From IMG/VR virus record IMGVR_UViG_3300023184_000082, positions 1 through 64,000 of that record: DNA of 64,000 nt, one strand, 5' to 3'. Numbering within the stretch: position 1 is the first letter of the stretch; each line of letters starts with the position of its first letter. The notes beneath the pieces were generated by a model. It was not told the DNA's origin. It did not search any database and saw only the letters and a program-made list of their open reading frames with translations. This stretch comes from a virus. Below are positions 1,145 to 20,000 of the stretch, piece by piece. The position numbers were made by a program, and so were the translations under genes.

Positions 1145-1178
1145 CGAAAACCTCCAGCAACATCATAGCAAAATGATG

Positions 1179-1474: not shown

Positions 1475-1726
1475 TTAAGGGGTTACTGTATCAAGAAAGG
1501 AAAATTCAGATTCCGTAGGGTCAAACAGTTCAACAACAACACGATACTTCTTTGAGCTTCCCAATGTTGTTGTTTTGATATCCTGAAGAATTTTTTTTGC
1601 TTGGAACTTGCTGATTGATGCTGGTAGTTTTTCATTTTCCTGATATTCAAAACTGTCAGCATAAAATGATACGGACTTATCAAATAACGCATGTGAATGG
1701 TTATTTACTAACGATATTCTAATCAT
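1475..1726 (-). CDS. Hypothetical protein (83 aa), AT-rich
   Basis: GGAG SD, follows the upstream gene closely. Confidence 0.6.
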   Translation of the reverse strand: MIRISLVNNHSHALFDKSVSFYADSFEYQENEKLPASISKFQAKKILQDIKTTTLGSSKKYRVVVELFDPTESEFSFLDTVTP

Positions 1727-1737
1727 GGCGATCTCCG

Positions 1738-2106
1738 TTACACCTTTACGGCACTAGCTGAAAGCAACGTGGTGAGGAGACCGTCCGGAAGGTGTTCTCT
1801 CATCCAGTTTGCGTAGCTGGCATAATTTTTTTCTCTACTGGCAATTTTCTCCTGGGTTCGCTGTTCGACTTGTGCCCATTGCTCCAGTATAGCAGACAGC
1901 ATCTCGCGATTTTCCGCAAAATTTTCCGGCACTGGCGCGTATTGTTCCGTACCGTCAGCCTCCACGATGATGCGACGGTTCCTTCTTGGCACCAGTGCCA
2001 TGCCCAGTACCGACAAGCCGTAGGTATATTCTATCTCGTCCCGGATGATCATGCCATCCGGCATGACAATTTCCCACACATCAATGATTGGTTCAGACAG
2101 ATTCAT
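1738..2106 (-). CDS. Hypothetical protein (~122 aa; start MNLSEP preferred)
   Basis: Short overlap with the end of the upstream gene; protein-like composition. Confidence 0.65.
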   Translation of the reverse strand: MNLSEPIIDVWEIVMPDGMIIRDEIEYTYGLSVLGMALVPRRNRRIIVEADGTEQYAPVPENFAENREMLSAILEQWAQVEQRTQEKIASREKNYASYANWMREHLPDGLLTTLLSASAVKV

Positions 2107-3181
2107 CTTTCTCTCTCTCGTCGCCAAAATAGAATTTCAGCACTTTCAGGATGTCAGTTTTGGAAAACTTTGCCAATTTATCCAAGTCGATTGGTGCGCC
2201 ACGCTTTTGTGCCTCCTTGATCAGGTTTGCCACATGATCTGGCAACTTGGCTAACGATTGCTTTGTTGTCTTGGTAGCCTCCACGATGTCCACCGGCGCG
2301 TTCATTGCCATCAGGCTTTCGTAGGCATCATCGCGATCAGGATGATCATTGGTGATGAGATCTCGAATGAGTGGAGCTTTCATGTCGCGCAGCAAGTCTT
2401 CCGCCTCGATATGTTGCCGCGGATCGAGCATCGTGATGTCCATTGGCATGCCCATTTGTCCAAGCATGAGCAAGGCTTCTTTCTGGTCTCCACTTTCATG
2501 CTTGTCATGAACAGGTTTCTTGATGTCGTGTACATGCTCCCAGCGAATGTTCCGTGTTTTTTCATCGGAATCCTTTACGGAAATTCCATGTTTTCCCAAG
2601 GAAAGTATCTGGCACCATTGAGGACTGTCGTGATCAAATGGATGCTGGACAAAAGCGAATGATCCTTGTGCAAGGTCAGGATGAAACAACCAGTTCTCTT
2701 TTGAAACGGGAACATTCTTTTTTCCCGCCATTATGGCAAGCGAAATGGTGGGCGATGCAGAAGAACCAGCGCTTCCGGGAGACGGGATGTCTGCTTTGGG
2801 AGGACCATAATGCCGCGTGGTTTTTCCGGCAGGTCGCATTCCTGCGCCAACATGTCCGACAAACTTGTCCGAAGAAGGAAGCGCCACGGGTCTTGTTTGT
2901 GGAGCCCTCGTTGCGCCCAAGCCTTTTTCAAATCCTTCTTCCTGCTGGACATAGTTGACAAATTGAAACGCGTCCAGAAGAAAAGAAAAACTTTTTTTCA
3001 ATCCATCCAACGATCTTTGTTGCAAGGCTTGATGTTCCACAATTCCTTGCTGATCAAAAATGGTATATTCTTTATGGATACTGGAGTCATGACCGTTTTG
3101 CTGGATATCCGCAATGGATTTCCTGAGTGTATTTGCAGTTCTTGAGTATACCGAAGTCTTTTTTTCTAGGATAACACCCAT
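2093..3181 (-). CDS. Hypothetical protein (~362 aa; start MGVILEKK) with a possible SH3/KOW-like beta domain
   Basis: AAGGA SD 8 nt before ATG 3181; TGATATACT element upstream; QILSLGKHGISVKDSDEKTRNIRWEHV beta-rich segment; LRKS, LKKS and FEKG motifs in the N-terminal third. Confidence 0.75.
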   Translation of the reverse strand: MGVILEKKTSVYSRTANTLRKSIADIQQNGHDSSIHKEYTIFDQQGIVEHQALQQRSLDGLKKSFSFLLDAFQFVNYVQQEEGFEKGLGATRAPQTRPVALPSSDKFVGHVGAGMRPAGKTTRHYGPPKADIPSPGSAGSSASPTISLAIMAGKKNVPVSKENWLFHPDLAQGSFAFVQHPFDHDSPQWCQILSLGKHGISVKDSDEKTRNIRWEHVHDIKKPVHDKHESGDQKEALLMLGQMGMPMDITMLDPRQHIEAEDLLRDMKAPLIRDLITNDHPDRDDAYESLMAMNAPVDIVEATKTTKQSLAKLPDHVANLIKEAQKRGAPIDLDKLAKFSKTDILKVLKFYFGDEREKDESV

Positions 3182-3212
3182 TTGCATGATCCTTCTTGCA
3201 ATAATCAAAAAA

Positions 3213-3221
3213 AGTATATCA
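3213..3221 (-). promoter_or_regulatory. Extended -10 promoter element TGATATACT for the leftward operon
   Basis: TGnTAnnnT about 30 nt upstream of ATG 3181. Confidence 0.5.
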
Positions 3222-3236
3222 CAAGAAAGATGTCCA

Positions 3237-3629
3237 ATGAGAGTATCGTTGACAAGGCAAGACAATCCGGAAGATGATCCAGACATCGTTGTACATGGAG
3301 CAAGACCACAAAGAACAAAGGTTCCGTCTTGCGGAACATGCACTAAGCGGTTCAATTGCATAATACTCAATTATTCATTGGCATCAATGCAAGTGCTCAT
3401 GCCAATGCCCACCAAGTCAACCCAGATTATTCTGGACAAAAACGGAAGGCCCGTTGAATCACAGGAAAGTTTTTTCCCATTCCCCATGCCGTGCAGAGGT
3501 GAGGCGTACTCACCAAACACCAACGTTGATTTCGAAAACAATCCCCTTGTGCAACGTCTCGGTCTTGTAAACGTCTCCGATCCTGTCTCGTATTATGATC
3601 ACGAAAAAAAACTCAAGGAAAACGAATGA
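3237..3629 (+). CDS. Hypothetical Cys-containing protein (~130 aa; CxxC-x4-C...C)
   Basis: Part of the 3114..3629 ORF that does not overlap the divergent gene; ATGA overlap with the next gene; start uncertain. Confidence 0.55.
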   Translation: MRVSLTRQDNPEDDPDIVVHGARPQRTKVPSCGTCTKRFNCIILNYSLASMQVLMPMPTKSTQIILDKNGRPVESQESFFPFPMPCRGEAYSPNTNVDFENNPLVQRLGLVNVSDPVSYYDHEKKLKENE

Positions 3630-4093
3630 TGGATTACGAAGGGCTGATGACATTTGCAACAATTTCCTACGCGCCCATATTGGCGTCGGTAGCAACTTTT
3701 ACAGTAAATAAACTGTGGCAGGCACAGGCTGCAAAAAAAAACCGCAGCATATCATTGGATGTTGCGGAACAGCGTTCCCTGTACGAAAAACAGAAAAATC
3801 TTACCGAAGAAGTTAACGTGCTTCTTTCTGCAAACAAATCTTATCGGGAAGAAATCAAAAAAGATCTTGATTCATTGAAAAACGAATTGGAGGAGTCCAC
3901 ATCTTTTCATCGCAAAGAAATGGAAATGATGAAGAAAGAATATGAGGAAGAAATCCAGAGGTTGCGCACAAAAATATCAGAACTGGCTTCAGAACTGTTA
4001 ACATACAGGAGAGAAAACGGCGCGTTGCATCTTTTGCTGAGCGAACGAGGCATAGAAGTTCCATCATGGGTAAAGAAATCTACGGACAAGTGA
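3626..4093 (+). CDS. Membrane-anchored coiled-coil protein (155 aa), holin-like architecture
   Basis: N-terminal hydrophobic segment then a long heptad-rich charged region; AAGGA SD. Function is an inference. Confidence 0.6.
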   Translation: MMDYEGLMTFATISYAPILASVATFTVNKLWQAQAAKKNRSISLDVAEQRSLYEKQKNLTEEVNVLLSANKSYREEIKKDLDSLKNELEESTSFHRKEMEMMKKEYEEEIQRLRTKISELASELLTYRRENGALHLLLSERGIEVPSWVKKSTDK

Positions 4094-4100
4094 GGAATTA

Positions 4101-7100
4101 ATGGTTGTTGTTTTCAGAAAATCAGAAGAAGGCCCAAGCTCGCGTTCAGTTCCGCTTGGATTTTTTGGCTCAAGTACGCCAAGAAGACCAGCCGCGCCGA
4201 AAGTGGATGTGTCACCCGAGCCAGTTGCGGAACCTGCTGCGCCCCCGGAGGCGCGTCCTGAATCAAGGCACTTGCCGGTTGAATACATCGGCAATGCGCG
4301 AGGAAGGCGTCAGGCATCACGAGTGACGGGCCGAGGCATTGCACCTCCAACAAACTTGGCTATTGCGGAAGCGCTGACAAAGGTACGCGCAAAAGACGGG
4401 GGACCATTGGGTGTTTCAAGGTATACTGGATTGGCGCCTGATAGACTTCGTGTGGATGACGACGCTGATGCAATAACCGATTTGTACAAGCCAGGCGCAA
4501 ATCAACCCGTTGTTCTTGGTGCAACGCTTAATCGCGTGGCCACAGCGCCAGGCGTGTTCAATTTGAATCCCACTATGGATACCTCCATTGCTGGAATTCA
4601 ATCAGCCAATGGAGACGAGATTGCTCCAGAAATAAACGGAAATCTCGTGCGAGTGCTGCGTCATCATCTGCACGTCGAGAGCGATGGAACCACGGCGCGT
4701 CTGAAACATATTGACGCCCCTGGTGCCGCAAGAGTGGAAGCTCTTTTCCCGAGACTTGGACCGTTTGGAGTACATCAGGCAAGACAGGAAATTGAAGATT
4801 CTCGGACCGGTGCTGAAGGAGATCAATCCGGAACATCAAGAATGGTCTTGATGCCAAGTGAAAATGGTTTCAAGTTTGTGCGCGGATTACCACCTGTTGT
4901 TCCCGGAACAGACGATTTTCGGGATAATGGAATTTTGCATCCAGCGCATACGCTCGGTGTTCCATTGTTTGCTGGTGTGGCACAGGGAGCAAACAACATA
5001 TCAGGGACAAAGACCTCGGTCACTGGCAAACCACAAAGAGATGTTTATTCAACAAAGCCGTTTTTGGAAGAGGCGCAAGAAGTACTTAGCATAATCAAAG
5101 CCAAAACAATTGAATTAGAAAAACCAACAACAACAGCAAGCGAAAGAGAACGACTTCAAGCGGAAATTACCAAATTGCATTCGGCAAGACAATTGATGCT
5201 AAACCCTGACGTTGCGGCTGGTTTTCGAGATGCCTTGTTTGCTGGAAGCAATCAACTTGGAAGAAGGTACATCGGATTGGCTCCAGGAGTATTTGGTGGG
5301 CCATCGTCTCCTCAGGAATGGAACAGTGCGGAAGAGCGCAAGGCAGCATACGCAACTATCGAATCCTCGCGCTCCATGTTATCACGAGGCATGCACAATG
5401 GATTGTTCCCATTTCTTCATGAAGATGGAATGAAGAGGATATTTGCAAAGCAGTCGGTCGATATTGATGGAAAACCAGCAGTCAACAGCGAGTTCTTCGA
5501 TGTTGTTGGAACAAGGGCAACATTAGAGGTTCCTGTCTTGCCAAACACTTCACACGCTCCTGATGCAATGAAAACACACATTGTAAATGCCTCGCGTCTT
5601 TTTGCTCCTATCAGGGCGACCATGGATGATTCGGTATTATTTCTTAACCCAAATGACGAGCAGAAAGGCGAATACAAACCGGCTTATGTAGTCATGACAA
5701 TAAATTCAAGGTCTACATCCGGAAAAACAACGAGTCTTAGAATTCTGGACGATCCAAGATTGCGATATAGGGCATCAACATTGGCGTCAGGATTGCAAAG
5801 TTTTTCTCATTGGGGGGTTGCCCTTACGGATCAAGGCGCGGGACACAGTCGCGCAATAACCTATTGGAGTCAAAAATTAGCAGAAACAACGCGGAAACTT
5901 ATTCTTCAAAAAGGAACTTCTGCGCAATACGACGTTTTTGCTGATCCTGAAATCATAGAAATCAACAAGAAATTAAATGCTGCCAAAGCAGCGCAAATAA
6001 AAACGGATACCGAAGTTGCCAGACGCAAAGACGGAAAGAGACCAAGGGGATTCAAGGAATCAATTGGCACCAAGGAAAATCCAATACAATTGCCAATGGC
6101 AGGATATGGAGGATTATCCTCAACACCGGTTCCCATTTTGGATCCCAAAACGGAAATTTCCGGACAATTGTATGCGTTTAATCCCCTTGTTCCCGGTCAA
6201 TCAATCAGCGCTATTTCAATGCATCCATCTTCAGTTGACAACGTTACTGGATTGACTGAATCGCCATGGTACAGATTGCAAACAGACCGCAAATTAACCC
6301 CCTCAAAAGATTCGGAAAAATTGTCTCAAGAAGTTTTATCGCAAGAATCCTTGGCACAATCCGGACTTCGCGCTCTGGTGATCAGTCAAGGAGTGGATGG
6401 TTACGCAATGGTCTTGAAATCACCAGACGGACATGTGATACAAGCACATGGATTTCAATGGAGCCCTGCGGTTCTTGCAGTTCATCCACCAATATTCCGC
6501 GACAAGTCGGGCACAACACTTCCAAGTGGATCATTGTTTGGTGCTGCAATTTCAAACACGGTGGAAACATTCAACAGGTCAGTAGAAGAATATGGTCATA
6601 TTCGCAGAATTCAATCACAAATAATTTATGATGACGACGATAAGGAAACTGAACAGGCAGACATCTTGGGCAAGGCAATTGAAAAAAGAGAAGATCCATT
6701 TGCCTTATACAGGGAAACTCCCTTATGGAGCCCTGTGTTTGACAAAAATGGGGATCCAATCCCTGGTCAATTTGAGCAATCGCCCAACCACAATTCACTG
6801 ACAATGTCGGATCCGGGACATTACGCGCTTGACGATTTTGGCGTATGGAGATTTTTTTCGGGCATAAGCAGTGATACTGCAATGGAATATGGAATTCATA
6901 ATTTTCCTACAAAAATGATGAGGGGCGGAGTAAATCATGATGCATTCTATCCTCACGACGTTGGGGGCAAATCCCGATGGAACAGAAAAACAACAAGGAC
7001 GACCGGTGTCGATGAATCATGGCCAGACAGGGGTGGTGATTCTGGTTGGGCGGTGCCGGGACAACGGTTTTCTTACGACAGGTTCAATGGCACTCCTGAA

Positions 7101-10100
7101 CGATATGTGCTGACAGGAGATGCTGTTCGTCAGTATCAAATTGCCAATCCTGAAAGAAGGGCCCTGTCCGACAGGATTTCACGGGAAATATATGATTTGC
7201 AAATGCAGCGTCATTCAATGGCTTCCGGACGATATACAGTTATTGCACAAAGAGAACGCACAAAATCAACACGCAAGTTGGGCAAATACAGCGAAGACAC
7301 AAAAAAAGATTGGGAAACAGTTGCAACAAAATGGGCAACGACAACATTTATGGAAAACATTCCTACGATCAGCAGCGCGGAAAACGATCCAAACAGAAAT
7401 AGCATGCCGGTAGCGGAATTTCTCGCGGAGGGAATAAAAACATTTCTTTGCCAAGATCAGCAGTTTATTCATCATTTTTCCCAAAATATTGAAAAACCAG
7501 AAATACAAGAAGCAATAGCTTCGGTTCTCTGTCAAAAATTTGGTGTAGCCTCATTGGAAGATCTTGATGCTCAAACCAAGGAATTGATCAATACAACAAT
7601 GAAGGAAGCAACAAGTAACGCAACAACAATCAGGGAAAAAGAAGAAAAAGACAAGGATAATGAAATTGAAGATTTGGTTATTACTGACTTGCATGGTCAG
7701 GATATTGTTACTGGATCATATCGGTTATTTTCGAGACCCGCAAAAGGTGCGGTCCATATGCCGTGTGCACTCATGGATAACGACGACAAAGAAACAATAT
7801 TGTTTTTCCCAAGAGATCCAGAAGACAAGAATAATCTTTTCTTGGGAATGCGAGCAGGCAATCGCATTGAATGGGTAGATGGAAAAAAGGTAATTTCAAA
7901 CGCAATTCCAGAAAACAGGGGCGATCACAACTCGCCAATTTTCATAAAATCAGTTTCAGTTACTCCCAATGGATCATATTGCACACTTTCAAAATCCCAA
8001 GAAATGTTTTCGGACGAATTAAAAGCGCACATTGAACAGTATAATCCCACAAAAACAAAAACAGACGGCTCGCTTTTAGTTCGCATTTCACAAGATGAAC
8101 TTGTTCCAATTTTGCCTTCGCAAATCCGTCCGTACGACGGATTTATCGAGCAGCATGGAGAAGAGCTTCCATCGAGCTTATTCACAAACATGTTGCTTTC
8201 GAAAAAACAAAGAGAATCAGCAGAAAAAGAAAATAACAATGAAACTATAAGAGAAGAAATTATTCGCTATCTTAACAATGTGGCAACAAAAAGAGATCCG
8301 CTGCAAGCAAGTGGCGTTGACGCAAATGGAAATATCATTCCAAATGAGCGTTCCGGATTCTTGAGAAAAATAGGAATAGATATTGGCGTAGAAGATTCTC
8401 ACTATATGTTTGCAAGCATGAATCCGGATGATTACACATGGATAAAGGAATCAATTCCTGAAACCATTGATTTGCAGGATCCAATGTATTACTTGGCATC
8501 AAGAATAACGCCGAATACTACTGGAAGTTTCAATGCAATCAGGAAATCTCGACAAAGCGCGGATCAGCAGGATTACAACATACAGCTTTGGTCCTTGAAT
8601 AACATGCAAAAAGTTGCTCGCGCCCTTGTTGTGAAACGAGCAGATGCAATTAACGGAAAATATGATGTCAAATCACTTGTGGTTCCATCAAAATATACCG
8701 ATGATGAAGATCAAGAGATTACTCTGGAAGCTGATGATGATTACAAAAAAATCATGCAAGAAGATGATGATATTCCCATTGAACACTTGAAAGATCCCAA
8801 TCAGGCAATGCAAACGCTTATCTTGGCGTTGGAAATGGATGCATTCAGGTCAATAACTCCTCATGGAAAAGGCGGCTATGACGAAAAGGGAAATGCCGAT
8901 TCAGATGGCGAGTACGATGAGCATGGCAATCATATCCTTGAGTTCATTGAAATTCCAAAAGAAATTACTGACATTTCACAAAATTCAGCAATGAAACAAT
9001 TCAAAGATGCATACGGATATGCAATTAGTGATCAATACATAAAGTTGATAGGCATGAATGGATTGCTTTCCGAACTATTGAATTCAAGAAATGAAGAAAC
9101 CTTATCAGATTTGAAATCCGTGCATCCAGAAATCGGAGCAATGTTTGAGAAAGCTCTTAATATTTCAGACAGATATGCAAAAACAAATGACAAGGAAGAA
9201 AAATCCAGACTTAGGACAGAAGGTTTGGAAATTAGTCAAGATATTGTCTATGCGCAAATGTCCGATGTGTTCAAGCGAATAAAAGGATATAGCGCTCTTT
9301 CTCCATTGCAAAAACTGGCTTTTGTCGAGCTTGACAACGTCGGAATTGTGGGAAATTTCAACAAGCTTCGCATGGGTGTGCCAAAATCATCGTATCAACT
9401 TGACGGAACTGACGTTTCAGACGAGCAATGTCAAGAGGCAGCGCTGGTGATTCATGGATTGGCTTCAAGTTCTGTTGCGGGAAACCACATGGCTAACAAC
9501 AAGGGATTGTATCGATCAGACGGAACTCAAAAAATAGAAATTATGCAACATCAAATCAACCCCGACGCTTTTCAAGCGGTATTCATCAAAGGCAAACTGA
9601 CACATGTTCGCGCATTGGATTACCCAGAAATAGACCCAAAGATAAGAGATCTTGCAAAATTGTCTGAACAAGTGGCATTTAAGGGAAATCCTTCCGAGGC
9701 AAAACTTGATGAAATGATAAAAATCATTGCAGATTATCCAGAATGTCAAGCAGAATTGATCAAGGCAAAAAATACATTCATGGACAGAGGAGAATTATCA
9801 AGGACAGATAGATTAAAGATCATACAAACAGTAGGTGTCAGACTTGGTCTTTCTCCCGAAGACTTGCCATACGGAATGCTCAAGAACATAAAAGATAACA
9901 TCACAACTGCGATGGCGTTGACTGTTGCATCCCAAGCGCAAATGCATGCCATGTGGACACACCGCAAACAAGAAGATCAATTGACTGCAGGTCAAGAAAA
10001 ACCAATCAAAAGACCAGGCTTGGGAGTTACGTTGAATGCGTTGCCTCTTGGATTAAGCGGAGAACATCAAGCGCTTGCCGATCACGGTCATTCCGATGGT

Positions 10101-13100
10101 TCAAAGATATTTGATGGCACCGTTCCTTCAGTTCTTCCAAGACCTATTCATGATAACGAACAATTTTTGCCTGCTGATGAAGAAGAAAAAAATCTTGGGC
10201 GCAAGACAATAGCATTGCAGGACGGAAGAAATTTTACTAAAGAACTTCTCATGCCAGCGCGTTTGCCACAAAGAAGAATTGTAAATGGTCAAATTGTAAA
10301 TCAACTTGATGCTCAAAGCGTGTTTGAGAACTTGTCAGCAAGTGGCGTTACTGTCTCTCTGCCAACTATTGATTACGAAAATGATATTCGAACGTCTCCA
10401 GCGGCAATTCGCGCATCAATGGCCGGGTACGCATCTCCAAGATGGTCAATGCTCATGCTTTTGGGCGACGACGATGAAGAAAACAGCCTCATAAAGAAGT
10501 ATCTTCACGTACCACAAGGCGTTTCTGCCGCGCAGGGCGGAATTGGTCAAAAAATATGGGATCGATTGATAGGCGGCAAGGCGTTGAATGGCATTCTTGT
10601 AGCCGGAAACATTGGATTGGGAAAAGACGAGGATGTTGTTAATCCTGTAACAAAAGAAAAGCTCATGGGAAGCAAAAGACCTTTGAGAATAGATGGATTA
10701 GATAACGAGCTTGGAAGAGCAAGAACAACAAGCGGTGTGTACTTGTCATTTGATCCAAGCCCAGACAACATCACATATGACGAAGACAAAAAACAAGTTA
10801 CTATCAACCAGGCAGTGTTTACACAAGTCAACAAGTCGCGTCAAGGATCATTTTCCAGAGAAAGAAAAATGAATGCTCCGCTTGTCATATCATGGCAAGT
10901 TGACAATGGTCAAACAAAAATAAACATGTCTGACATAAGAAAAAAGCTGTATTTTTTCACACAAATTATCGATGACGATACACAGCAATTTGTATCTGAT
11001 TCGCAAGAAAGACTGGCTATCGACAAGACTGGTCTTGCAACGGATATTATTAGCATTATGCCATCTCATGTCGAACGACTAATGGGCATTGCAAAAACAG
11101 AATCCGATAGAAGAATCGGTGTCGGAATTGCAAGTTTTGAGGATTTGTTTGACGAACAGCATCATGCTTTAGCGAGTGCGTTCAGGGCAATGTGGGAAGC
11201 TCCCACATCATTCGATAGCATTCCCGGTGTTGCTGGCGCACAAAGACAAAAAGCCATCTATGATGCAACGGGTTGGACTGTCAGCGGACCTGATCAAATT
11301 AAAGATGCGTTTCTTTCACCGTCATTTGCTGCCGCTTCCTCATCTTCCACATGGGGGACGCGAGGAATTGTCGTAGGAAGGACAGGTCACAAGGACGAAG
11401 GATCAAACAACGATTTGGCAATAGTTTTTGTTCCAATGAAACCAAGTGAGGCGGTATGGTTTGACGCAACAGATCATGAGGACAGGGCAGCAAAAATACG
11501 CGAAGAAAGACTTGCCGATCAATCCGAGGCGATGGGACATTTTCGAAGCTTATTTCATTCAATCATGACTGGAAGCAGCCATGATCCGCAAAAAACGGTT
11601 CACGAAGAAAAGAAAAAATCGCCATTCTGGCTCTATGGCAAACGTTGGAACATATCATCGTCAACAGAGGATGGAGCAAGATTTGGCAGGCCATTTGCTG
11701 CTGGACCTGAAGCAGCTGCACTTAAAGCCGCAAGAACAATAAATGCGGCAACCAAGAATCCCATGACGCTCGGAAGATTTGTGCTGATGCGCATTGACAG
11801 GAATGAGTTGAATCAAATTCGCAATCAGGATGGAACTCCATCCGATGCATTGTGGGTATCCTTAGGTGATTCAACAGCAGCGGAACACAGAAATCTTTTG
11901 TCAGATGTAACAGAAAAACGAAATGAATACAATAGAGCGCTGACTGCTGCTGGAATTAGTGAAGTTCCAAGAATGTCTCAAATCAGAACATTTTCTTTGG
12001 AATCGCTTTCAGAACAACAACAAAAAATACTGAGAGCAAGAAAAGCATATGAAGAATGGAGGTCCGCAAAAGCAACTCTTGCAGCCAAGAGTATCCAAGC
12101 TCATGATGAAGAAAACTTGATCATTGCAAATCCAGAAAAAGACATTGTGGCATCATGGGATCCAAAGATGACATTGACTCACGAATCTGTCGCAAAAATG
12201 GCGCCATACATGGCGTATTGGTTAACGCAAGTTGCTCAATTGCAAGGCGACAGTGCCGATATCCATTATGGGAAAGCTTTGGATGAAATAGCGAAAAAAA
12301 GAGGATTGTCAGAAGAAAGCAAGTCTATCATAGATAAATTGAAATCAGGAATCCTGGAAAAAGCAGAAACCACACAAATTGCACAAGGAAAGCAGGATCT
12401 GTTACCCGAAAGACACATTCCTGAAACAATGCACAAAAAATCTTCTGAAGAATGGGGAATTGTTGAAATACCGGATTTCATGCTAGTGCCTGATCACAAA
12501 ATACTTGACAGGAAAGTTGGTTTTTCTACGGAAAAGATGATTCAAGTAATTGATCAGCTTCCTATCGGATTAAGAAATCTCATTAGTGAAAAAATACAAC
12601 TTGCAATTATCTCTCATAATGGAGCAAGTCATGAATTTCCCTCTATTATTGATCGAACTACTCCAGAGCCTGTCTATACATGGAGAGATGGAAATGTTAT
12701 TTATGCAAGCACAATAGGAATTGATCCGCAAAATGATTTTCTCAATAATCTTGCGGATATTTTTGCCGGTGAAATATGGTTTCCTGAAGAAGGAAAAGAT
12801 CGTCCCGAAGAAAAACAAACCAATATATTTGGGCAATCAAAAAATGAATCCTATGAAAAATCAAAAGAATACGCAGACGCGGTGGTGAAATATGCGCGTT
12901 CCATTCGTCAACAAGATAACTTTGATCAAATGCAACCAATAAGCAGGAAATGGATTGAGTCAATCATTCAGTGGCATGAAAATGCAATGGAGCAAGCAGA
13001 CGAAAAAGTCACACAACTATATCCCGGCATTAACGAAGAAGACAAAGAATCATACATGCGAAATTATGCGCTCAGTAAAGTTGCATTGAATCTTCATCGA

Positions 13101-16100
13101 GAATGGTTCAAGGCCGTTGTTACGCGTGGTGGCCCGGTTGAACGGTTCGTTCGGGATAACCGAACAAGAACAAGTCAGCCAAAAACGCAATACAATGGAA
13201 CACCTTCTTGGATTGATGCCCATGAAATTGACTCCGGCGCCATGCCAGTAAAATTCTTGCCTTATTATCTTTTGAGCCAAGCCAAGGCCTCATTGAACCA
13301 AGGCAAGCCTCCAGAGCAATGGGAGGGTTGGGATACCATTGCAAGACCACAAATGAAAAGTCTGCTTCGCGGAGAAGAAGAACTGCGTCCATTGATAGAA
13401 AAACGTGAACAACTGGATTCAGAACAAAAAGCCTCAGCACTATATGGTCTTGAAACAGCACTTACATTGGATAGTACTGATAATCGCTACACGGGAGCCT
13501 TGGCGATTACTGCATTTGCGGGAACAGGAAAAACAAGAACCATCGTTCATCGCGTATCAGAACTGGTAAATCTTGGGTTCAATCCAAAAGAATTCTTTAT
13601 TGCAAGTTTTACAAGAAAATCTTCCCAAGACCTTCGGGACAAAATCAATAAGAATTTAATCGAAACCGGTTTTGGCGAAACCAGTCAAGGGGTAACAAAA
13701 GTAGCAGAAGGATTTGAATTTAATGCCCAACAAGTTCATACTTGGCATGGACACGCACTGTTCATGCTCAGGAATGATATTCCCGTGCCATCTGAGCTTT
13801 TGTCTCCCGGACAACAAAAATCTGGTCAACAACTTATTGATCTTTATACAACAGAAGTGTATGACAAGGCATCAAAAACTATCATTCATTACAAAAATGA
13901 ATTTTACACTGCAGACAACATAAGAGTTATAGATGATCAAAGACCTGAGGACAAAAATCTTCTTATGAGATTAATGAGAAGATCTTTTCGAGACTTGAAG
14001 TTGCCAACGTCCACAGTGAAAAATGGCAAGAGAGTATCAAGGCTGGATGATTTTCGTTCGTTTATTGATCAAGTAAAAAGCTTGGGAATAACTCCCGCAC
14101 AATATGAGCAACAACTTGATATTGCTGGGGAAACTGATATCCAGACACGTCATTTTTCAAAAGTATACGCAAGATATCAGGCGCTCATGGCAGAACAAGG
14201 CCTCGTTGATCAAACAGATTTGCTCAACATGGTTGTATCCATATTGAAAAGAAACCCAACAGTTCTATCGATGTACCAGCAAAAATACCGACAGTTCATC
14301 GTTGATGAGTACCAAGATCAAAACGGCGCACAGGAACAATTGCTGCAATTGCTTTCAGATAAAAAGAAAGGAGGATCAGGAAACGTTACGGTAGTTGGTG
14401 ATCCTAGGCAAGCAATTTATGGATGGCGCGGATCCACGCCGCAATACCTGAAAGATTTTGCAGATAACTATAAATACACAAACTCCAAGGGCGAGACCAT
14501 TGTTCCCGGGATGATGACCATCAAAACAAACTATCGGTCAACCGAAGAAATCGTCGACGTTGGGAATACCATCAGGGGAACAGATGAGTCTGGTTTTTCT
14601 CACGCAAAAATGCAAGCAAATCCAGCAGCACTCAAGGGATCTCCAGTAGAGATTGTTGCTTGTGATGATGAGAATTCTCAAGCAAATTTCATTGCAGATG
14701 AAATCAAGAGACTTGTTGGCAAAAATCACAGCGACACAATGACTCCAAAGATGGCATCGTCAGTTGACGAATCATTATCGACCCCCGCATATGGCGACAT
14801 GATGGTCGTAACCCGGCTTCTGTACCAAGCGCGAACCCTTCAGCGAGAGCTGCAATCAAGAGGAATTCCTGCAACCATTGATCATGGCGAATCATCAGTA
14901 TCATCATCAAGAGAAAGGACGATGAGCGTTCCTCAAATAATACGGGGACTCCTAGAATCAAGCAATGAAAAAGATTCCGCACATCTCAATGAGCTTGCTG
15001 ATATATTTTCACTTGCAAAAGACGCATTATCCAACAACGCGTCGTATGGTTCGTTGCCCGAAACGTCTCAGAATGGAAAAATTTCTGTATTGACAACCAT
15101 TGCAAGACTTCTAAAAAGAAATAATTCCACATTAAGATATGATCAAATGAACAAACTGCTGGCAGCCTACGACGTGACGATGGAAAATGCACAGACACGA
15201 AATGAAAAAGTATCTCTTATGAGATTCATATTGGACAATCAGGAAGAAAAACGTTTTTTTACCGCCGCACAATGGAGATCACTGAGCCCCGTTGCTGAAT
15301 CCATAGAAGCCAACAATGATGGGGAAGGAAGATCATTATCAAAGATACTCATGCATGCCATAGGTGAAACTTCATTGTTTGGAAAAAAATTAAGAAACAT
15401 AGCAAGCAAATCAATCATAAACAAGACATTTGATTCGACAGAGGTAAGAAAATTTCTTGCTGATTTGAACTTTGAAAATCTTTCAGTCGGACAAATACAA
15501 AGAAAAATTGATAATTTGGAGAACAGGCTCAATCAAATTTCCGACAAGAGAGTTGACGATCAAGAATTGGCGCAGAAAAAAATTCGACAGACAGGAAATG
15601 CTGTCCGCATCCTCACAATTCACGTTGCAAAAGGAACGGAAGCCCGAGTAGTTTTCAATGCTTATTGGAATGAAGGATCAATACCCATAGCAAGAAGTGA
15701 AAACAGGGGACCTGAATCAAGGCAAGAAGAAAGAAATCTTGCGTATGTTTCCTCAACTCGCGCAAAAGAAAGGAATTATTTTGTTTATCCAAAAAAGACA
15801 ATAACCAAGGCAAAATCTGTTCGTTCAGTAAATCCATCACGATTCATCGGAGAAATTCCAGAAAAAAATTCAAATTATTCCGAATATGAAAATGGCATAA
15901 GAACATACAAGCGTCATCCAAGCACAGATTTGGGTCAACAAATTGAGCAAATTGTTCAAGATCCATCAATGTTGCTGGAAAGTTTTGGCATAGAGCCAAC
16001 AAAAGATCTTGAAAATCTTGTTGACAAATTGCGCAGGATGTGGGCAGAGCCACAAGAGTCAACAGCGCCTTCGGGCGGGTCATTCCGACAAGTGTTGTTC

Positions 16101-16709
16101 GATGGCGTCCCTTTCCAGTCTCAATTCACGATCAATCCGTGGGGATCCCTGCCACAGGCAAACAGTGGAAATGTGCTAAATGGTCAATACGCAGGAGAGA
16201 CAGGCGCTGGTTCAACAGGAAATGTCACAAGGGTCAGAAACGTCCGAGGAACAGGAACGCCAGAGCCGGAAGAGACCGCAACGAGCAGGGCAATGGACAT
16301 ACTCACGGGACGTGTAAAAGCTACGGCAACAAAAGCCCGGGTTGCTCCTGCTCCGGCGGTAAATATCATCAAGGCAATCAAGGGTTCAATCCTAGATGAT
16401 TGGCATGCAGTGATATCAAGCGGAGAAGAACCCGATGTTCCCGATGCAATAGATCTCATTATCAAATACCTAAGCAAAAAGCCGCGCGATCAAAAAACAA
16501 TCCGACAACTATTTGATCTCCCGTCATACACCATGCCAAGCGACGAAGAACTTGGTGTGGGGGAGTGGTCGACTGATAAGGAGTATTGGGACGCTGTCCT
16601 CCAAGACGCGGCCCCAAATAATAATGAGGAAATGCAAAAGAAAATCGATGAGATTATAGAACAACTCACCAAGGAGAAAGGTGAATCAGCAAGCCCTCGT
16701 CTTGTGTGA
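4101..16709 (+). CDS. Giant polyvalent protein (4202 aa) with C-terminal UvrD/PcrA-type SF1A helicase
   Basis: Uninterrupted 12.6-kb ORF, GAGGA SD; helicase motifs I-VI all present. Confidence 0.92.
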   Translation: MVVVFRKSEEGPSSRSVPLGFFGSSTPRRPAAPKVDVSPEPVAEPAAPPEARPESRHLPVEYIGNARGRRQASRVTGRGIAPPTNLAIAEALTKVRAKDGGPLGVSRYTGLAPDRLRVDDDADAITDLYKPGANQPVVLGATLNRVATAPGVFNLNPTMDTSIAGIQSANGDEIAPEINGNLVRVLRHHLHVESDGTTARLKHIDAPGAARVEALFPRLGPFGVHQARQEIEDSRTGAEGDQSGTSRMVLMPSENGFKFVRGLPPVVPGTDDFRDNGILHPAHTLGVPLFAGVAQGANNISGTKTSVTGKPQRDVYSTKPFLEEAQEVLSIIKAKTIELEKPTTTASERERLQAEITKLHSARQLMLNPDVAAGFRDALFAGSNQLGRRYIGLAPGVFGGPSSPQEWNSAEERKAAYATIESSRSMLSRGMHNGLFPFLHEDGMKRIFAKQSVDIDGKPAVNSEFFDVVGTRATLEVPVLPNTSHAPDAMKTHIVNASRLFAPIRATMDDSVLFLNPNDEQKGEYKPAYVVMTINSRSTSGKTTSLRILDDPRLRYRASTLASGLQSFSHWGVALTDQGAGHSRAITYWSQKLAETTRKLILQKGTSAQYDVFADPEIIEINKKLNAAKAAQIKTDTEVARRKDGKRPRGFKESIGTKENPIQLPMAGYGGLSSTPVPILDPKTEISGQLYAFNPLVPGQSISAISMHPSSVDNVTGLTESPWYRLQTDRKLTPSKDSEKLSQEVLSQESLAQSGLRALVISQGVDGYAMVLKSPDGHVIQAHGFQWSPAVLAVHPPIFRDKSGTTLPSGSLFGAAISNTVETFNRSVEEYGHIRRIQSQIIYDDDDKETEQADILGKAIEKREDPFALYRETPLWSPVFDKNGDPIPGQFEQSPNHNSLTMSDPGHYALDDFGVWRFFSGISSDTAMEYGIHNFPTKMMRGGVNHDAFYPHDVGGKSRWNRKTTRTTGVDESWPDRGGDSGWAVPGQRFSYDRFNGTPERYVLTGDAVRQYQIANPERRALSDRISREIYDLQMQRHSMASGRYTVIAQRERTKSTRKLGKYSEDTKKDWETVATKWATTTFMENIPTISSAENDPNRNSMPVAEFLAEGIKTFLCQDQQFIHHFSQNIEKPEIQEAIASVLCQKFGVASLEDLDAQTKELINTTMKEATSNATTIREKEEKDKDNEIEDLVITDLHGQDIVTGSYRLFSRPAKGAVHMPCALMDNDDKETILFFPRDPEDKNNLFLGMRAGNRIEWVDGKKVISNAIPENRGDHNSPIFIKSVSVTPNGSYCTLSKSQEMFSDELKAHIEQYNPTKTKTDGSLLVRISQDELVPILPSQIRPYDGFIEQHGEELPSSLFTNMLLSKKQRESAEKENNNETIREEIIRYLNNVATKRDPLQASGVDANGNIIPNERSGFLRKIGIDIGVEDSHYMFASMNPDDYTWIKESIPETIDLQDPMYYLASRITPNTTGSFNAIRKSRQSADQQDYNIQLWSLNNMQKVARALVVKRADAINGKYDVKSLVVPSKYTDDEDQEITLEADDDYKKIMQEDDDIPIEHLKDPNQAMQTLILALEMDAFRSITPHGKGGYDEKGNADSDGEYDEHGNHILEFIEIPKEITDISQNSAMKQFKDAYGYAISDQYIKLIGMNGLLSELLNSRNEETLSDLKSVHPEIGAMFEKALNISDRYAKTNDKEEKSRLRTEGLEISQDIVYAQMSDVFKRIKGYSALSPLQKLAFVELDNVGIVGNFNKLRMGVPKSSYQLDGTDVSDEQCQEAALVIHGLASSSVAGNHMANNKGLYRSDGTQKIEIMQHQINPDAFQAVFIKGKLTHVRALDYPEIDPKIRDLAKLSEQVAFKGNPSEAKLDEMIKIIADYPECQAELIKAKNTFMDRGELSRTDRLKIIQTVGVRLGLSPEDLPYGMLKNIKDNITTAMALTVASQAQMHAMWTHRKQEDQLTAGQEKPIKRPGLGVTLNALPLGLSGEHQALADHGHSDGSKIFDGTVPSVLPRPIHDNEQFLPADEEEKNLGRKTIALQDGRNFTKELLMPARLPQRRIVNGQIVNQLDAQSVFENLSASGVTVSLPTIDYENDIRTSPAAIRASMAGYASPRWSMLMLLGDDDEENSLIKKYLHVPQGVSAAQGGIGQKIWDRLIGGKALNGILVAGNIGLGKDEDVVNPVTKEKLMGSKRPLRIDGLDNELGRARTTSGVYLSFDPSPDNITYDEDKKQVTINQAVFTQVNKSRQGSFSRERKMNAPLVISWQVDNGQTKINMSDIRKKLYFFTQIIDDDTQQFVSDSQERLAIDKTGLATDIISIMPSHVERLMGIAKTESDRRIGVGIASFEDLFDEQHHALASAFRAMWEAPTSFDSIPGVAGAQRQKAIYDATGWTVSGPDQIKDAFLSPSFAAASSSSTWGTRGIVVGRTGHKDEGSNNDLAIVFVPMKPSEAVWFDATDHEDRAAKIREERLADQSEAMGHFRSLFHSIMTGSSHDPQKTVHEEKKKSPFWLYGKRWNISSSTEDGARFGRPFAAGPEAAALKAARTINAATKNPMTLGRFVLMRIDRNELNQIRNQDGTPSDALWVSLGDSTAAEHRNLLSDVTEKRNEYNRALTAAGISEVPRMSQIRTFSLESLSEQQQKILRARKAYEEWRSAKATLAAKSIQAHDEENLIIANPEKDIVASWDPKMTLTHESVAKMAPYMAYWLTQVAQLQGDSADIHYGKALDEIAKKRGLSEESKSIIDKLKSGILEKAETTQIAQGKQDLLPERHIPETMHKKSSEEWGIVEIPDFMLVPDHKILDRKVGFSTEKMIQVIDQLPIGLRNLISEKIQLAIISHNGASHEFPSIIDRTTPEPVYTWRDGNVIYASTIGIDPQNDFLNNLADIFAGEIWFPEEGKDRPEEKQTNIFGQSKNESYEKSKEYADAVVKYARSIRQQDNFDQMQPISRKWIESIIQWHENAMEQADEKVTQLYPGINEEDKESYMRNYALSKVALNLHREWFKAVVTRGGPVERFVRDNRTRTSQPKTQYNGTPSWIDAHEIDSGAMPVKFLPYYLLSQAKASLNQGKPPEQWEGWDTIARPQMKSLLRGEEELRPLIEKREQLDSEQKASALYGLETALTLDSTDNRYTGALAITAFAGTGKTRTIVHRVSELVNLGFNPKEFFIASFTRKSSQDLRDKINKNLIETGFGETSQGVTKVAEGFEFNAQQVHTWHGHALFMLRNDIPVPSELLSPGQQKSGQQLIDLYTTEVYDKASKTIIHYKNEFYTADNIRVIDDQRPEDKNLLMRLMRRSFRDLKLPTSTVKNGKRVSRLDDFRSFIDQVKSLGITPAQYEQQLDIAGETDIQTRHFSKVYARYQALMAEQGLVDQTDLLNMVVSILKRNPTVLSMYQQKYRQFIVDEYQDQNGAQEQLLQLLSDKKKGGSGNVTVVGDPRQAIYGWRGSTPQYLKDFADNYKYTNSKGETIVPGMMTIKTNYRSTEEIVDVGNTIRGTDESGFSHAKMQANPAALKGSPVEIVACDDENSQANFIADEIKRLVGKNHSDTMTPKMASSVDESLSTPAYGDMMVVTRLLYQARTLQRELQSRGIPATIDHGESSVSSSRERTMSVPQIIRGLLESSNEKDSAHLNELADIFSLAKDALSNNASYGSLPETSQNGKISVLTTIARLLKRNNSTLRYDQMNKLLAAYDVTMENAQTRNEKVSLMRFILDNQEEKRFFTAAQWRSLSPVAESIEANNDGEGRSLSKILMHAIGETSLFGKKLRNIASKSIINKTFDSTEVRKFLADLNFENLSVGQIQRKIDNLENRLNQISDKRVDDQELAQKKIRQTGNAVRILTIHVAKGTEARVVFNAYWNEGSIPIARSENRGPESRQEERNLAYVSSTRAKERNYFVYPKKTITKAKSVRSVNPSRFIGEIPEKNSNYSEYENGIRTYKRHPSTDLGQQIEQIVQDPSMLLESFGIEPTKDLENLVDKLRRMWAEPQESTAPSGGSFRQVLFDGVPFQSQFTINPWGSLPQANSGNVLNGQYAGETGAGSTGNVTRVRNVRGTGTPEPEETATSRAMDILTGRVKATATKARVAPAPAVNIIKAIKGSILDDWHAVISSGEEPDVPDAIDLIIKYLSKKPRDQKTIRQLFDLPSYTMPSDEELGVGEWSTDKEYWDAVLQDAAPNNNEEMQKKIDEIIEQLTKEKGESASPRLV
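13410..15860 (+). other. UvrD/PcrA/Rep helicase domain within the 4202-aa protein
   Basis: LDSEQ; AFAGTGKT (I); SFTRKSS (Ia); HTWHG; IVDEYQD (II); VVGDPRQAIYGWRG (III); NYRST (IV); LTIHVAKGTE (V); EERNLAYVSSTRAKE (VI); PSRFIGEI. Confidence 0.95.
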
Positions 16710-16736
16710 TGCAGCATGCGGCTCAATCAATCGGCA

Positions 16737-16745
16737 TGCTATACT
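16737..16745 (+). promoter_or_regulatory. Extended -10 element TGCTATACT
   Basis: Directly upstream of AAGGAG SD and ATG 16761. Confidence 0.5.
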
Positions 16746-16760
16746 TTCCACAAGGAGAAC

Positions 16761-17048
16761 ATGATGGCCATTACCAAGAAGAACGAAAACTTTTATTACG
16801 AGTATGACGAGGATAACGAAGACGGCACGACAAATACCGTTTGGATGCCTGTTGAAAAACTCAAGGGAAGGCAGAGAAAGCAAGCCATCAACGAGCTTCA
16901 GCGCGGTCGATCAGCAAATGTCAAGAATCGCGATCTGGAAGAAAGCGAAAATCTTCTTAAGTGGATGAAGAAAAAGAAATCATTTTCTGGCCGAGATATT
17001 GCGAAACTTGAACAACGCATCTCGGCAGAAAAAAAGCTTTTCGATTAA
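16761..17048 (+). CDS. Small charged hypothetical protein (~95 aa) between the two giant genes
   Basis: AAGGAG SD before MMAITKK; acidic N-half, basic C-half. Confidence 0.75.
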   Translation: MMAITKKNENFYYEYDEDNEDGTTNTVWMPVEKLKGRQRKQAINELQRGRSANVKNRDLEESENLLKWMKKKKSFSGRDIAKLEQRISAEKKLFD

Positions 17049-17066
17049 AAATCCAAGGATTATGCA

Positions 17067-20000
17067 ATGATTCCGGATAAAACAGGGGAGATTTTGTCGG
17101 CAGTCCATGCTCAAAAAACTGGCGGCATTCCAGATACCGCTGCACGTGGTGGGGGCTACATAGTTCAGCACAAACCTGACGTACCTCGTCCTGATGAACC
17201 AGGATCACTTGCATTGCCTCTTGTTGATCAGGCTCATGTGCGCAGTTCAGGAATGAGCGCTAGCGCAATAAGCAGTGATGTTGCAGATATTGGCACCATG
17301 CCGCCTTCTTCCCTGACGCATGGGTCGCCAATGATAACTGCAATGCAAACACCGCGGCAAACTGAACCAAAATGGACAGAAAATGGTCTTCAATATATCA
17401 TCAATGGGCAACCTGTAAATGTGCTGTCAAATGGTCAGGATTTGTCGGTGCAGCTTCCAACGGTTACCGGCGCTCCTACTGCACCTCTAGGCAAGCCTGA
17501 GGATGTATCGTCTCACTTGCTGTTTGATCCATCAAAAATTTCACGCAATTCAGGCGGATTGGATAATCTTACATCACAGCAGCTCGACCGTATAACTGCA
17601 TCGATAGGCGCACATGAGGCCAATCAAAAACTCTTGTTCGGGATACAGCGGATCTTCCGTGACGGAGGAAGGGATCCTGCTGCTGGGGAGCTGACACAGA
17701 AACAAAAAGATGATCAGCATAAAGACAAGAAATATGCCAGTCTTGAGCGAAAATACACAAAGGATGGACGCTTGCTTCTGGATGCATTGCCCCTTACAAC
17801 TCTCACATCGCTGGCAAGTACAGCCCGTGATCGCGCCAATGCTGCCTACAAGGCGTGGTACGAAAACTCAGGCCCACTTGAAGGAAAAGCAACAAAAGCC
17901 GATATCAATCAATTGCAACAAATGCGCATGTCTCGCAAAAAACAGTTTGAGTACGGTTTTGAGCCCGGCAATGGCATCATGCGGGTATTCACACTTGACG
18001 ACGGTCGAAAATTCTCCGAGCCAGTTATTCCCGGAAAAATATCCACCTCAAGGGAATTGCCTGATTCCGTGGATCATTTTTCCGGAGTATTATTTCCGGG
18101 AGATCTTGCTCAATCCGAAGACGAGTTGATAAAGTTTTTGGGCAATCCATCGTATCACCGCGATGCATCCGGAAAAACTGTTCTGGAAGCTCATAGCGAT
18201 GCGATGAGAGGCTTCATGGACAATCATCTTGAGCAAGGCATTTTCCCAATGTTGGGAGATAACCGACCAATTTCCAGAGAAACATCGCGTACACCTAGTC
18301 GTGCGGAAGGTATCGCCGGAGAAGAGTCTGCTGCGTCCAAGACTGCATTGGTCGAAGAGAGGGTTAAGGATGACTTTGCTCTTCTCATGGATGAAGTTGC
18401 CGAGAAAAGGGCTTCCATGGAGATTGCCCTGCAACAAATCCTTGAGACAATTGCATCGCCTACAGAAAAGTTGGATCTTCCTGAGATCTTTAAAAAAATA
18501 GAAGCCTTGGGCGACACTAAGCTTCCTGAAGCAAAAAAGTTGGAAGAAGAATCCATAGGCGTCCTTCAGCAACGTGAACTGCAGGAAAAAATACAGGCTA
18601 TCAAGTTTTCTGATGGAAAACCATTACGATTGGAAGATCTCATTTCCCCTGCTGTCGATTCCGACGGGAATTCACTTCCGGGTTCATTGCTTGTCAATAT
18701 GTCGACACATGGATTCATAGGAAAAACCGCGGCAACTCCTGGCGCGAGGCATCCACTAGCGTCTGTCGCAGCCATTGAGGCGCAAGCCTACAACACGGGA
18801 AGGATCAGCAAGGGACTTACGACACTTGATGCAGCCAAAGCACGTATTGATCCGGACAATCTCAAGAAAGAAAAAGATTTTGCCGAAAAAATCAAAGCCT
18901 ATTTACAGCAAGCAATGGAAGCATCTCTTCTCAAGTACCGAGCTGATACTCAGCAAACAATAAAAATCCCAACGTTACGTCAAAAAGTACCCCTCCCTGT
19001 TGACGCTGCAATGAAATTTCACAAAAAGCAATTATTTTCCGCACTGCAAATACCAGTGACGACAGGCGTGGATGTAAAAAAATACGCAATGAGACTGCCT
19101 CAGGACCAAGGATCCGAAAAATTAGTTCCAGTCATACGTCTTGTAGACCTCAGACCCGACGAATTTGTCGATCAAGTATCATCCTCAATTTTCAGCCGTG
19201 ATGAAGCAAATATTTTTGATACTAAATTAAGTGCTGCGTATGAAAATTTCTCAAGTGCCAAACAAAACATGCAGACGGTTTCAGGGCCCGAAAGCGAAGC
19301 GGCGGTTGCCAATGCACGACAAGGAATTGAGAATGTACTAAAAGAAAATCTTGTCTTGAATGAAACTGAAAGACAAAGCATAGAAAATATAATCGGAAAA
19401 GATGCCAGTCCATACATAAATCTTGTGAAAAAAGCTCTTCCTAAGGCATTGTTTGACTCATGGCTTGACAAAGTGAAAAATGGCAATTTTCTAGGCGCCC
19501 TGACAATCATGCGGGATCGACTTGACGCAAGTTCCACAAAAACCGCAGCACAACAAAAAATCAAGGCAGACCTTGCGGAGTACACAAGACAATTAAGAAA
19601 TGATGTTTCCTATTATATTCGATCAGAAGGCGAACAAAGCAAAACCCCTACGGGATTATTTTCGCCGAGAATCATTCGCGAAAAGTCACAGAAATTCACG
19701 CCGTATGAAGATTCTACGAATGCCGCATTGTTCAGAAAAGCATATCGGCAATCATTGATAAATTCAGATTCAACGTTATTGGATCCGCAATCATTCGATG
19801 ACGACAAAAGTCCGGAAATGGCAAAGTTTATTGATCAATACCCTCATGTGCTGGTTGATTCCGGACAAGCAGACATCAGGAGTTGGTTTTCCGAGTCAAT
19901 ACTCAATGCTGCAAAAGACAGGTTTCTTTCATATGAGATTCAACCCAAGAATCCATCAAATATTATACTCCAGTCAACGAGCGCTGCGCAGGAGGCGAGA

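Follow-up and report, generated by a model that had tools for sequence, protein, structure and literature searches.

A survey by Iyer et al. (2017, PMC5512222) predicts that polyvalent proteins which phages encode beside late genes are packaged and enter the cell along with the DNA. In that survey, UvrD-like superfamily 1 helicases were confined to a few giant actinomycete plasmid proteins, where they occurred with SWI2/SNF2 helicases, and none was reported in phages (PMC5512222). The DarB protein of phage P1, a methylase and helicase that forms a head component, accompanies the DNA into the cell and shields it in cis against restriction, and the virion RNA polymerase gp50 of phage N4 (~3,500 amino acids) is packaged and ejected, its large non-catalytic regions being needed for ejection and encapsidation (PMC5512222). 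In phage T4, the internal proteins (IP) and Alt carry N-terminal targeting peptides of 10-20 residues that are removed by gp21, and the protease of phage SPN3US has a C-terminal propeptide (PMC7411985); the T4 internal proteins are highly diverse, counter host defence and share only their conserved targeting sequence (PMC3012670). In this study, we analyzed the first 64 kb (64,000 nucleotides, hereafter the window) of the 79.9-kb IMG/VR virus contig IMGVR_UViG_3300023184_000082, which is 49% complete by the CheckV estimate. The window encodes a protein of 4,202 residues, here called the helicase giant, in which about 3,100 residues of unrecognized sequence are followed by a helicase of the UvrD/PcrA type.

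The helicase giant appears to be a variant of the theme of giant phage cargo and polyvalent proteins, new in its UvrD-type motor. Like polyvalent proteins, it is very large, phage-encoded and placed in an array with protease, capsid, sheath and spike genes, and it adjoins a second giant with domains of disparate kinds (DprA, NADAR and SLOG). Unlike them, it gave no match to a MuF domain, zincin metallopeptidase, LPD family or DarB-type pair of methylase and superfamily 2 (SF2) helicase, and the helicase is its only recognizable domain. DarB is the best functional analogy; however, DarB joins an adenine methylase to an SF2 helicase, whereas the motor here belongs to superfamily 1A (SF1A), and neither an EcoKI/TaqI-like methylase domain, nor an NPPY motif, nor sequence similarity to DarB was found in the helicase giant. 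DarB, with ~2,255 residues, has roughly half its size. N4 gp50 is likewise a single giant enzyme, but it is a catalytic RNA polymerase rather than a helicase, has no sequence similarity to the helicase giant and comes from a podovirus, whereas the phage studied here has a contractile sheath. We give slightly less than an even chance to the reading that the helicase giant is a capsid-targeted, protease-trimmed cargo that would be delivered with the DNA and whose helicase would act on the entering genome.

An SF1A helicase at the end of a giant protein

The open reading frame and its helicase features are as follows:

4101-16709, plus strand: helicase giant, whole open reading frame; 4,202 codons, ATG start, no internal stops; product of 468 kDa, isoelectric point 5.9
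13413-15773, plus strand: SF1A helicase core of the UvrD/PcrA/Rep type, Q motif to motif VI, residues 3105-3891
13512-13541, plus strand: motif I (Walker A), AFAGTGKTRT
14301-14324, plus strand: motif II (Walker B), VDEYQDQN
14391-14435, plus strand: motif III, VVGDPRQAIYGWRGS
15612-15773, plus strand: motifs V (LTIHVAKGTEARVVF) and VI (QEERNLAYVSSTRAKER)

In Pfam, UvrD-helicase (PF00580) matched residues 3130-3457 (E = 4.7e-47, 161.4 bits against a cut-off of 23) and UvrD_C (PF13361) matched residues 3474-3896 (E = 2.8e-19, 70.2 bits against a cut-off of 25.6); AAA_19 was likewise matched by the helicase region, and all five members of the helicase-giant family matched UvrD-type Pfam domains. 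PHROG 1967 ('DNA helicase') covered residues 3129-3935 with E = 3.7e-64, and the best matches among solved structures were UvrD and PcrA (E = 1e-32 to 1e-34), with Rep also among the best. Alignment to Deinococcus radiodurans UvrD, together with direct motif coordinates, located motifs Q (LDSEQ, 3105-3109), I (AGTGKT, 3140-3145), Ia (SFTRKSS), II (DEYQD, 3402-3406), III (GDPRQAIYGWRGS), IV (NYRS), V (TIHVAKGTEARVVF) and VI (QEERNLAYVSSTRA). An earlier note on this DNA had described all SF1A motifs as intact, and this held: the set is complete, with the catalytic Lys, Asp-Glu, Gln and Arg residues, and the motif residues are invariant across the family's five relatives. The C-terminal quarter of the protein is thus predicted to be an intact UvrD/PcrA-type DNA helicase.

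The helicase giant is not an orthologue of PcrA, UvrD or Rep, because its NCBIfam equivalog scores (~160-200 bits) were far under the cut-offs (~900-1,150): 202 bits against 911 for PcrA, 181 against 951 for Rep and 158 against 1,144 for UvrD. The cellular UvrD, PcrA and Rep enzymes are stand-alone proteins of ~650-770 residues. The C-terminal 830 residues of the helicase giant resemble them in the complete motif set and in both Pfam domains scoring above cut-off, whereas the core differs in being preceded by 3,100 unrelated residues, in being followed by a variable tail of 270 residues, and in its greater length between motif Ia and domain 1B and in the 2B region.

The helicase core also matched GajB weakly (E = 1.5e-8 to 1.7e-8). 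These matches would fit a UvrD-like effector akin to Gabija GajB that acts in the infected cell, as a weapon against competing mobile elements or in superinfection exclusion, and the fast evolution described below fits any role in conflict. We nevertheless consider such a weapon very improbable, since the matches to UvrD, PcrA and Rep were far stronger, a Gabija-type partner nuclease is not present, and its size and giant neighbor in tandem set the protein apart from described defence systems.

Integrity and relatives of the fusion

The earlier note had named an assembly chimera at the junction of the two parts as one finding that would overturn it. An artefact of this kind, whether a chimera of an orphan gene and a helicase gene or a decaying pseudogene, has a negligible probability; it was refuted by the results that follow, and nothing in its support was found. 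First, the full-length frame is present, at 98% identity, in an independent metagenome contig (L002), and a single contig of 12,957 nucleotides from run X6, which belongs to another study, spans positions 4246-17183 with 137 substitutions and one in-frame insertion of 18 nucleotides. The stretch was found in freshwater-lake metagenomes of at least ten studies dating from 2013 to 2025. Second, four relatives are collinear with the helicase giant from end to end and keep both parts at 76% (P0003), 79% (P0004, 5'-truncated), 38% (P0005) and 28-30% identity (P0006). Their orphan and helicase parts diverge in parallel, with identities of 77 and 77%, 41 and 47%, and 29 and 36%, respectively. Third, the G+C content at third codon positions (GC3) is uniform across the junction (0.33-0.38), and residues 1401-3950 are under purifying selection. 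Because of the independent assemblies, the collinear relatives, the parallel divergence and the uniform GC3, we conclude that the fusion is old and maintained and is not an assembly chimera. The feature is real and rare, its architecture being conserved in five lineages among billions of proteins.

The region behind the helicase core is variable in these comparisons:

15906-16706, plus strand: C-terminal tail, residues 3936-4202; variable, mostly missing in P0005 and P0006, with an invariant NPWG at 16134-16145

The 18-nucleotide insertion (6 codons) lies in this tail, behind position 16260, and is polymorphic; the run X6 contig carries it, and six additional residues are present in L002.

The orphan N-terminal 3,100 residues

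The earlier note had called the N-terminal ~3,100 residues unrecognized, and our searches agreed: no family, structure-sequence or phage-genome match was obtained. Residues 1-3100 had no match in Pfam (to E = 5, with all five family members), PHROGs or NCBIfam, nor to sequence profiles of the PDB built from the family, and tblastn with residues 1-3000 against 50,697 phage records returned nothing. A word-indexed search of 5.8 billion protein clusters yielded only three relatives, whose lengths are similar, and no shorter form; viral contigs, searched with alignment A1 or P0005 as the query, likewise gave no short or split homologue of residues 1-3100, and no homologue was found in 185,579 species genomes. 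We also searched 1.84 billion representatives exhaustively with HMMER using residues 1201-2400, the other parts of the region being covered by weaker methods. This search returned the family only (P0003, P0006 and two fragments) and one spurious hit, P0009 (2,374 residues, E = 6e-6), a tandem-repeat protein in which one match of 60 residues and 32 bits had been counted ten times. The searches thus return only the protein's own relatives, and there is no full-length match to a described family, which the earlier note had listed as another possible refutation.

A signature scan of the orphan region found no transmembrane-like or strongly hydrophobic segment, no HExxH, NPPY or CxxC motif and no second P-loop, and internal repeats were not found. 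In the ESM Atlas, residues 1-699 gave no usable match, and clusters of M26 peptidase and LPD23 matched by residues 2101-3099 (scores of 0.78-0.82) were rejected, as shuffled sequences reach the same values. AlphaFold2 with the family alignment gave a mean predicted local distance difference test score (pLDDT) of 34.5 for residues 700-1899 and 37.8 for residues 1900-3099; these models are unusable, because the alignment holds only four sequences. With them, Foldseek found no match in the PDB at E <= 1e-3, and VIA-align wide reported only a generic helical hairpin (residues ~2588-2669, Z = 7.5), within the stated noise range of the tool; the models thus neither assign nor exclude a fold. The further suggestion that divergent enzymes hide in this region is neither supported nor rejected by these results, in which no catalytic signature was found. 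A region of 3,100 residues without known relatives constitutes a large reservoir of possibly new folds.

SF1A helicases such as PcrA and UvrD translocate on single strands and unwind duplex DNA, and the reeling of double-stranded DNA by such a motor would denature the genome. This conflicts with the idea, also raised in the earlier note, of a motor of the ejection apparatus that reels the genome into the cell or clears its entry path. We regard such a motor as improbable: no test spoke for pulling in of the genome, the transmembrane or strongly hydrophobic segment of an envelope anchor was not found, and there is no similarity to a known ejectosome protein. It would share the positional and tag evidence described below with delivery as cargo, and the N4 virion RNA polymerase is a known example of a giant ejection protein with a role at entry (PMC5512222).

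Gene neighborhood and the second giant

The genes to which we refer below are:

16716-17048, plus strand: small open reading frame between the two giants, 110 residues; 58% identical in the sister contig G001, far above either giant
17067-29885, plus strand: second giant, 4,272 residues, 472 kDa; DprA (residues 1579-1775), NADAR (2036-2165) and a further SLOG-type domain
40492-41952: portal-position gene, 486 residues, labeled by position only; 87% identical in G001
43440-44423, plus strand: prohead protease, PHROG 1028
44443-45954, plus strand: scaffold-position protein, assigned by position only
45978-47873, plus strand: major capsid protein, PHROG 752; conserved LNK-S at residues 17-20

The strand switches near position 3100, and from 3114 onward a rightward array extends with gaps of 0-18 nucleotides between genes; the helicase giant is its third member. 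The order is a protein of 171 residues, one of 155, the helicase giant, the 110-residue product, the second giant, a protein of 215 residues, an HD-domain protein of 1,316, one of 220, one of ~1,283-1,314, one of 206 and a Vsr/DUF559 endonuclease (39575-40249). A gap of 242 nucleotides separates them from the portal-position gene, a virion structural protein, the prohead protease, the scaffold-position protein and the major capsid protein, behind which lie the tail sheath, a VgrG3-like lysozyme spike and a CHAP tail protein. The contractile sheath makes the phage a myovirus, distant from known ones; the best matches of its capsid protein, to SPO1-like and Bacteroides phages, were only ~23-31% identical. 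The portal-position gene had no Pfam, PHROG or PDB sequence match, and no terminase was recognized anywhere in the window.

The second giant is a conserved tandem partner of the helicase giant, and its version in G001 (4,486 residues) also has a DprA match. Together, the two genes occupy 25 kb, or 32% of the 79.9-kb contig. Paralogy of the helicase giant with the second giant or with other large proteins of the window was not found, and it has no internal repeats. The product of the small gene between them could be a chaperone or an adaptor. An ATG (within ATGATG) near position 16761 is preceded by AAGGAG and is likely the true start of this gene, which would shorten the product to ~95 residues.

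GC3 is 0.35 in the helicase giant as opposed to 0.5-0.65 in head and tail genes; for the giant-gene block as a whole (4101-35157) it is 0.35-0.51, compared with 0.48-0.65 in the head and tail genes (40492-59358). The block may differ from them in expression level, timing or origin. That GC3 is unlike that of the structural genes is one of several points in favor of a second explanation, in which the helicase giant serves recombination, replication or repair and never enters the virion: the UvrD-type helicase and its DprA neighbor would drive recombination-dependent replication or circularization inside the cell, the N-terminal region would serve as a scaffold, and the position beside head genes would be incidental. 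We hold this to be possible, though rather unlikely. The recombination functions listed for jumbo phages include UvrD-type SF1 helicases and DprA (PMC7824862). The nearest phage helicases found by tblastn were stand-alone, replication-type helicases of SPO1-like Bacillus phages, to which the capsid protein is distantly related too, and genes of DNA metabolism, such as the Vsr/DUF559 endonuclease, are interleaved in the array. The points that weigh against this intracellular role come from the terminal motifs and from the rates of divergence.

A conserved N-terminal tag and a terminal motif

The first residues of the helicase giant stand out from what follows them:

4101-4124, plus strand: N-terminal tag MVVVFRKS, candidate capsid-targeting propeptide that would be cleaved after K7
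4158-4280, plus strand: Pro/Ala-rich linker, residues ~20-60, poorly conserved

The VVVFRKS start pointed out in the earlier note is indeed present, as the N-terminus reads MVVVFRKS. All three members with a known N-terminus retain the pattern M-(V/I)-(V/I)-V-F-(R/K)-K-S (MVIVFRKS in P0003 and MIIVFKKS in P0005), whereas the following 100 residues are ~27% conserved and gapped. The tag fits the motif [VILMF]-x-K-[SA], of which the scaffold-position protein has 7 sites against 0.8 expected (about ninefold, p < 2e-4) and the prohead protease 5 against 1.0 (about fivefold, p = 0.002), one of them at its extreme C-terminus; in the major capsid protein, hydrophobic-x-K-(S/A) occurs at residues 17-20. 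The motif lies at most 14 residues from a terminus in six of 25 proteins, with 1.4 expected (P ~0.001), namely in the protease, the 155-residue protein, both giants and both proteins of ~1,300 residues. G001 keeps part of these sites, namely the N-terminal site of the 1,312-residue protein (MNRIVKS), the C-terminal site of the protease, the capsid site and the seven scaffold sites, and its giants have the motif within the last 30 residues of their C-termini.

The enrichment of the motif suggests a prohead protease that would cut after Lys. In T4 (IP and Alt) and among the ejection proteins of SPN3US, capsid cargo carries a short N-terminal targeting peptide that the prohead protease cuts off at a motif abundant in the scaffold (PMC3012670, PMC7411985), and the pattern of tag and motif seen here is analogous. 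There are also differences: the predicted cut in the helicase giant would follow Lys, with Ser or Ala after it, rather than Glu, and the cargo would be 10-50 times larger. An intracellular giant leaves unexplained both the conservation of the N-terminal tag and the terminal motifs in common with the protease and the scaffold-position protein. If correct, the observation of terminal tags would allow capsid cargo of this phage group to be predicted by a simple, testable rule.

Rates of evolution

The contig G001 (77 kb, IMG/VR), which encodes P0006, represents a sister phage and is fully syntenic with the window. Between the two, head genes are 75-92% identical (87% for the 486-residue gene, 85% for the protease, 75-80% for the capsid protein, and up to 92%), tail genes 58-66%, the 1,316-residue protein 46%, the helicase giant 28-30% and the DprA giant 27%. 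The ~1,283-residue protein is 35% identical to its homologue in G001 (1,848 residues) in an alignment over 37% of the length. Because the giants show 27-28% identity as opposed to 75-92% in the head genes, they are the fastest-evolving genes of the genome. Across positions 3114-64000, identity to G001 (L043-L046) fell in steep steps, with values of 27-59% in the giant-gene block.

A comparison of near-identical strains (the window and L002) divides the orphan region into two parts:

4101-8300, plus strand: orphan region, residues 1-1400; ratio of non-synonymous to synonymous substitution rates (dN/dS) of ~1-2 between near-identical strains, 47 non-synonymous and 9 synonymous changes
8301-13400, plus strand: orphan region, residues 1401-3100; purifying selection (dN/dS 0.2-0.45), conserved blocks at residues ~1251-1450, 2101-2500 and 2801-2900

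The ratio is 2.2 in residues 1-700 (27 non-synonymous and 4 synonymous changes), 1.1 in residues 701-1400, 0.2-0.45 in residues 1401-3100 and 0.15 in the helicase. The first third differed significantly from the rest (Fisher p = 2e-4), whereas its excess over neutrality was not significant (p ~0.1). Because the first third is still ~36-40% conserved to P0005, it is not junk. This pattern of rates fits a conflict interface, and two giant genes totaling 25 kb that evolve at several times the capsid rate are a sign of strong, host-specific selection.

As a rule, core replication genes belong to the better conserved part of a phage genome. A purely intracellular role in replication or recombination is therefore at odds with a gene that diverges fastest (28% identity against 75-92% in head genes) and whose first third has a dN/dS at or above ~1; an orphan extension of 3,100 residues is also without precedent among replication helicases.

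Proposed delivery of the helicase giant as capsid cargo

We favor delivery of the helicase giant with the DNA for five reasons. First, the co-directional and tightly stacked array runs into the head genes, and its order is the same in G001. Second, the helicase giant diverges far faster than the capsid genes. Third, the conserved tag fits a motif that is overrepresented in the scaffold-position protein and the protease. Fourth, polyvalent proteins and P1 DarB provide precedents. Fifth, GC3 is 0.35 in its gene as opposed to 0.5-0.65 in the head and tail genes, which fits a low-abundance product. The injection proposed in the earlier note thus gained indirect support from the array, the tag, the fast divergence and the neighboring DprA/NADAR giant, while packaging itself, as well as late expression, cleavage, ejection and the substrate of the helicase, is what we infer from them.

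In the proposed sequence of events, the helicase giant would be made at low copy number alongside the head proteins. Its short conserved N-terminal tag would build it into the prohead core, where the prohead protease would trim the tag after K7, and the protein would be kept in the capsid until infection, when it would exit together with the DNA. In the infected cell, the SF1A helicase may find its loading sites at single-stranded tails or nicks of the incoming genome, move 3'-5' and strip off host proteins, such as restriction or other DNA-bound defence complexes, RecA or RNA polymerase; alternatively, it may open DNA ends for recombination. It would probably work alongside the DprA/NADAR giant, and the fast-evolving region of 3,100 residues might serve packaging, passage and contact with variable host targets.

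Several observations weigh against delivery as cargo. The support for virion association is indirect, though coherent; there is no homology to a known virion or ejection protein, and neither MuF, a zincin peptidase, LPD nor another hallmark of polyvalent proteins was detected in Pfam searches of the five members to E = 5. The statistic on terminal positions is post hoc, as the motif was defined on the same genome, and the motif is not enriched inside the helicase giant (14 sites against 10.2 expected). The low GC3 would be equally consistent with foreign origin or with expression at another time. UvrD-type helicases and DprA are also ordinary components of the machinery by which large phages recombine their DNA (PMC7824862). 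To pass the tail tube, a protein of 468 kDa would need to unfold. Finally, the contig represents about half of the genome, and a separate replication module could lie outside it.

A broader proposal, which we regard as doubtful, is that the helicase giant and its 4,272-residue partner might represent an undescribed class of giant cargo delivered by the capsid, a toolkit of SF1A helicase and DprA/NADAR for single-stranded DNA that is built on new folds, addressed by terminal tags matching the cleavage motif of the prohead protease, and engaged in an arms race with host defence. If true, this would be the first UvrD-type motor injected by a phage, in a module that takes up about a third of the 79.9-kb contig. 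Should the protein be delivered with the DNA, the repertoire of injected enzymes (RNA polymerases, ADP-ribosyltransferases and methylase-SF2 helicases) would gain an SF1A UvrD-type motor, that is, a protein-stripping and strand-opening machine present at the first moment of infection, when restriction, Gabija-like and single-stranded-DNA-targeting defences act.

Transcription and translation signals

Contigs of metatranscriptome run X5 cover much of the helicase giant and were not used as evidence of expression, since contigs from RNA libraries are no proof of transcription. A promoter and terminator scan of positions 1-20000 of the window gave counts that were not above the shuffled expectation. 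The 11-mer ATGGTATATTC, which resembles an extended -10 element (TGnTATATT), is identical at 3060-3070 and 42652-42662; the first copy precedes the initial gene of the giant block by ~45 nucleotides, the second precedes the gene at 42680 by 18 nucleotides, and with two copies the statistics are weak. At the left end of the array, a minus-strand open reading frame of 425 residues (2093-3370) overlaps the first plus-strand gene (3114-3629) by ~250 nucleotides; neither has a family match, and an error in one of the two gene calls or start sites is probable.

The start of the helicase giant itself is preceded by a ribosome-binding signal that was read directly:

4092-4096, plus strand: Shine-Dalgarno sequence GAGGA, 4 nucleotides before the ATG, overlapping the TGA (4091-4093) of the upstream 155-residue gene

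Because of this overlap, the start codon of the helicase giant is well supported and its translation is probably coupled to that of the 155-residue gene.

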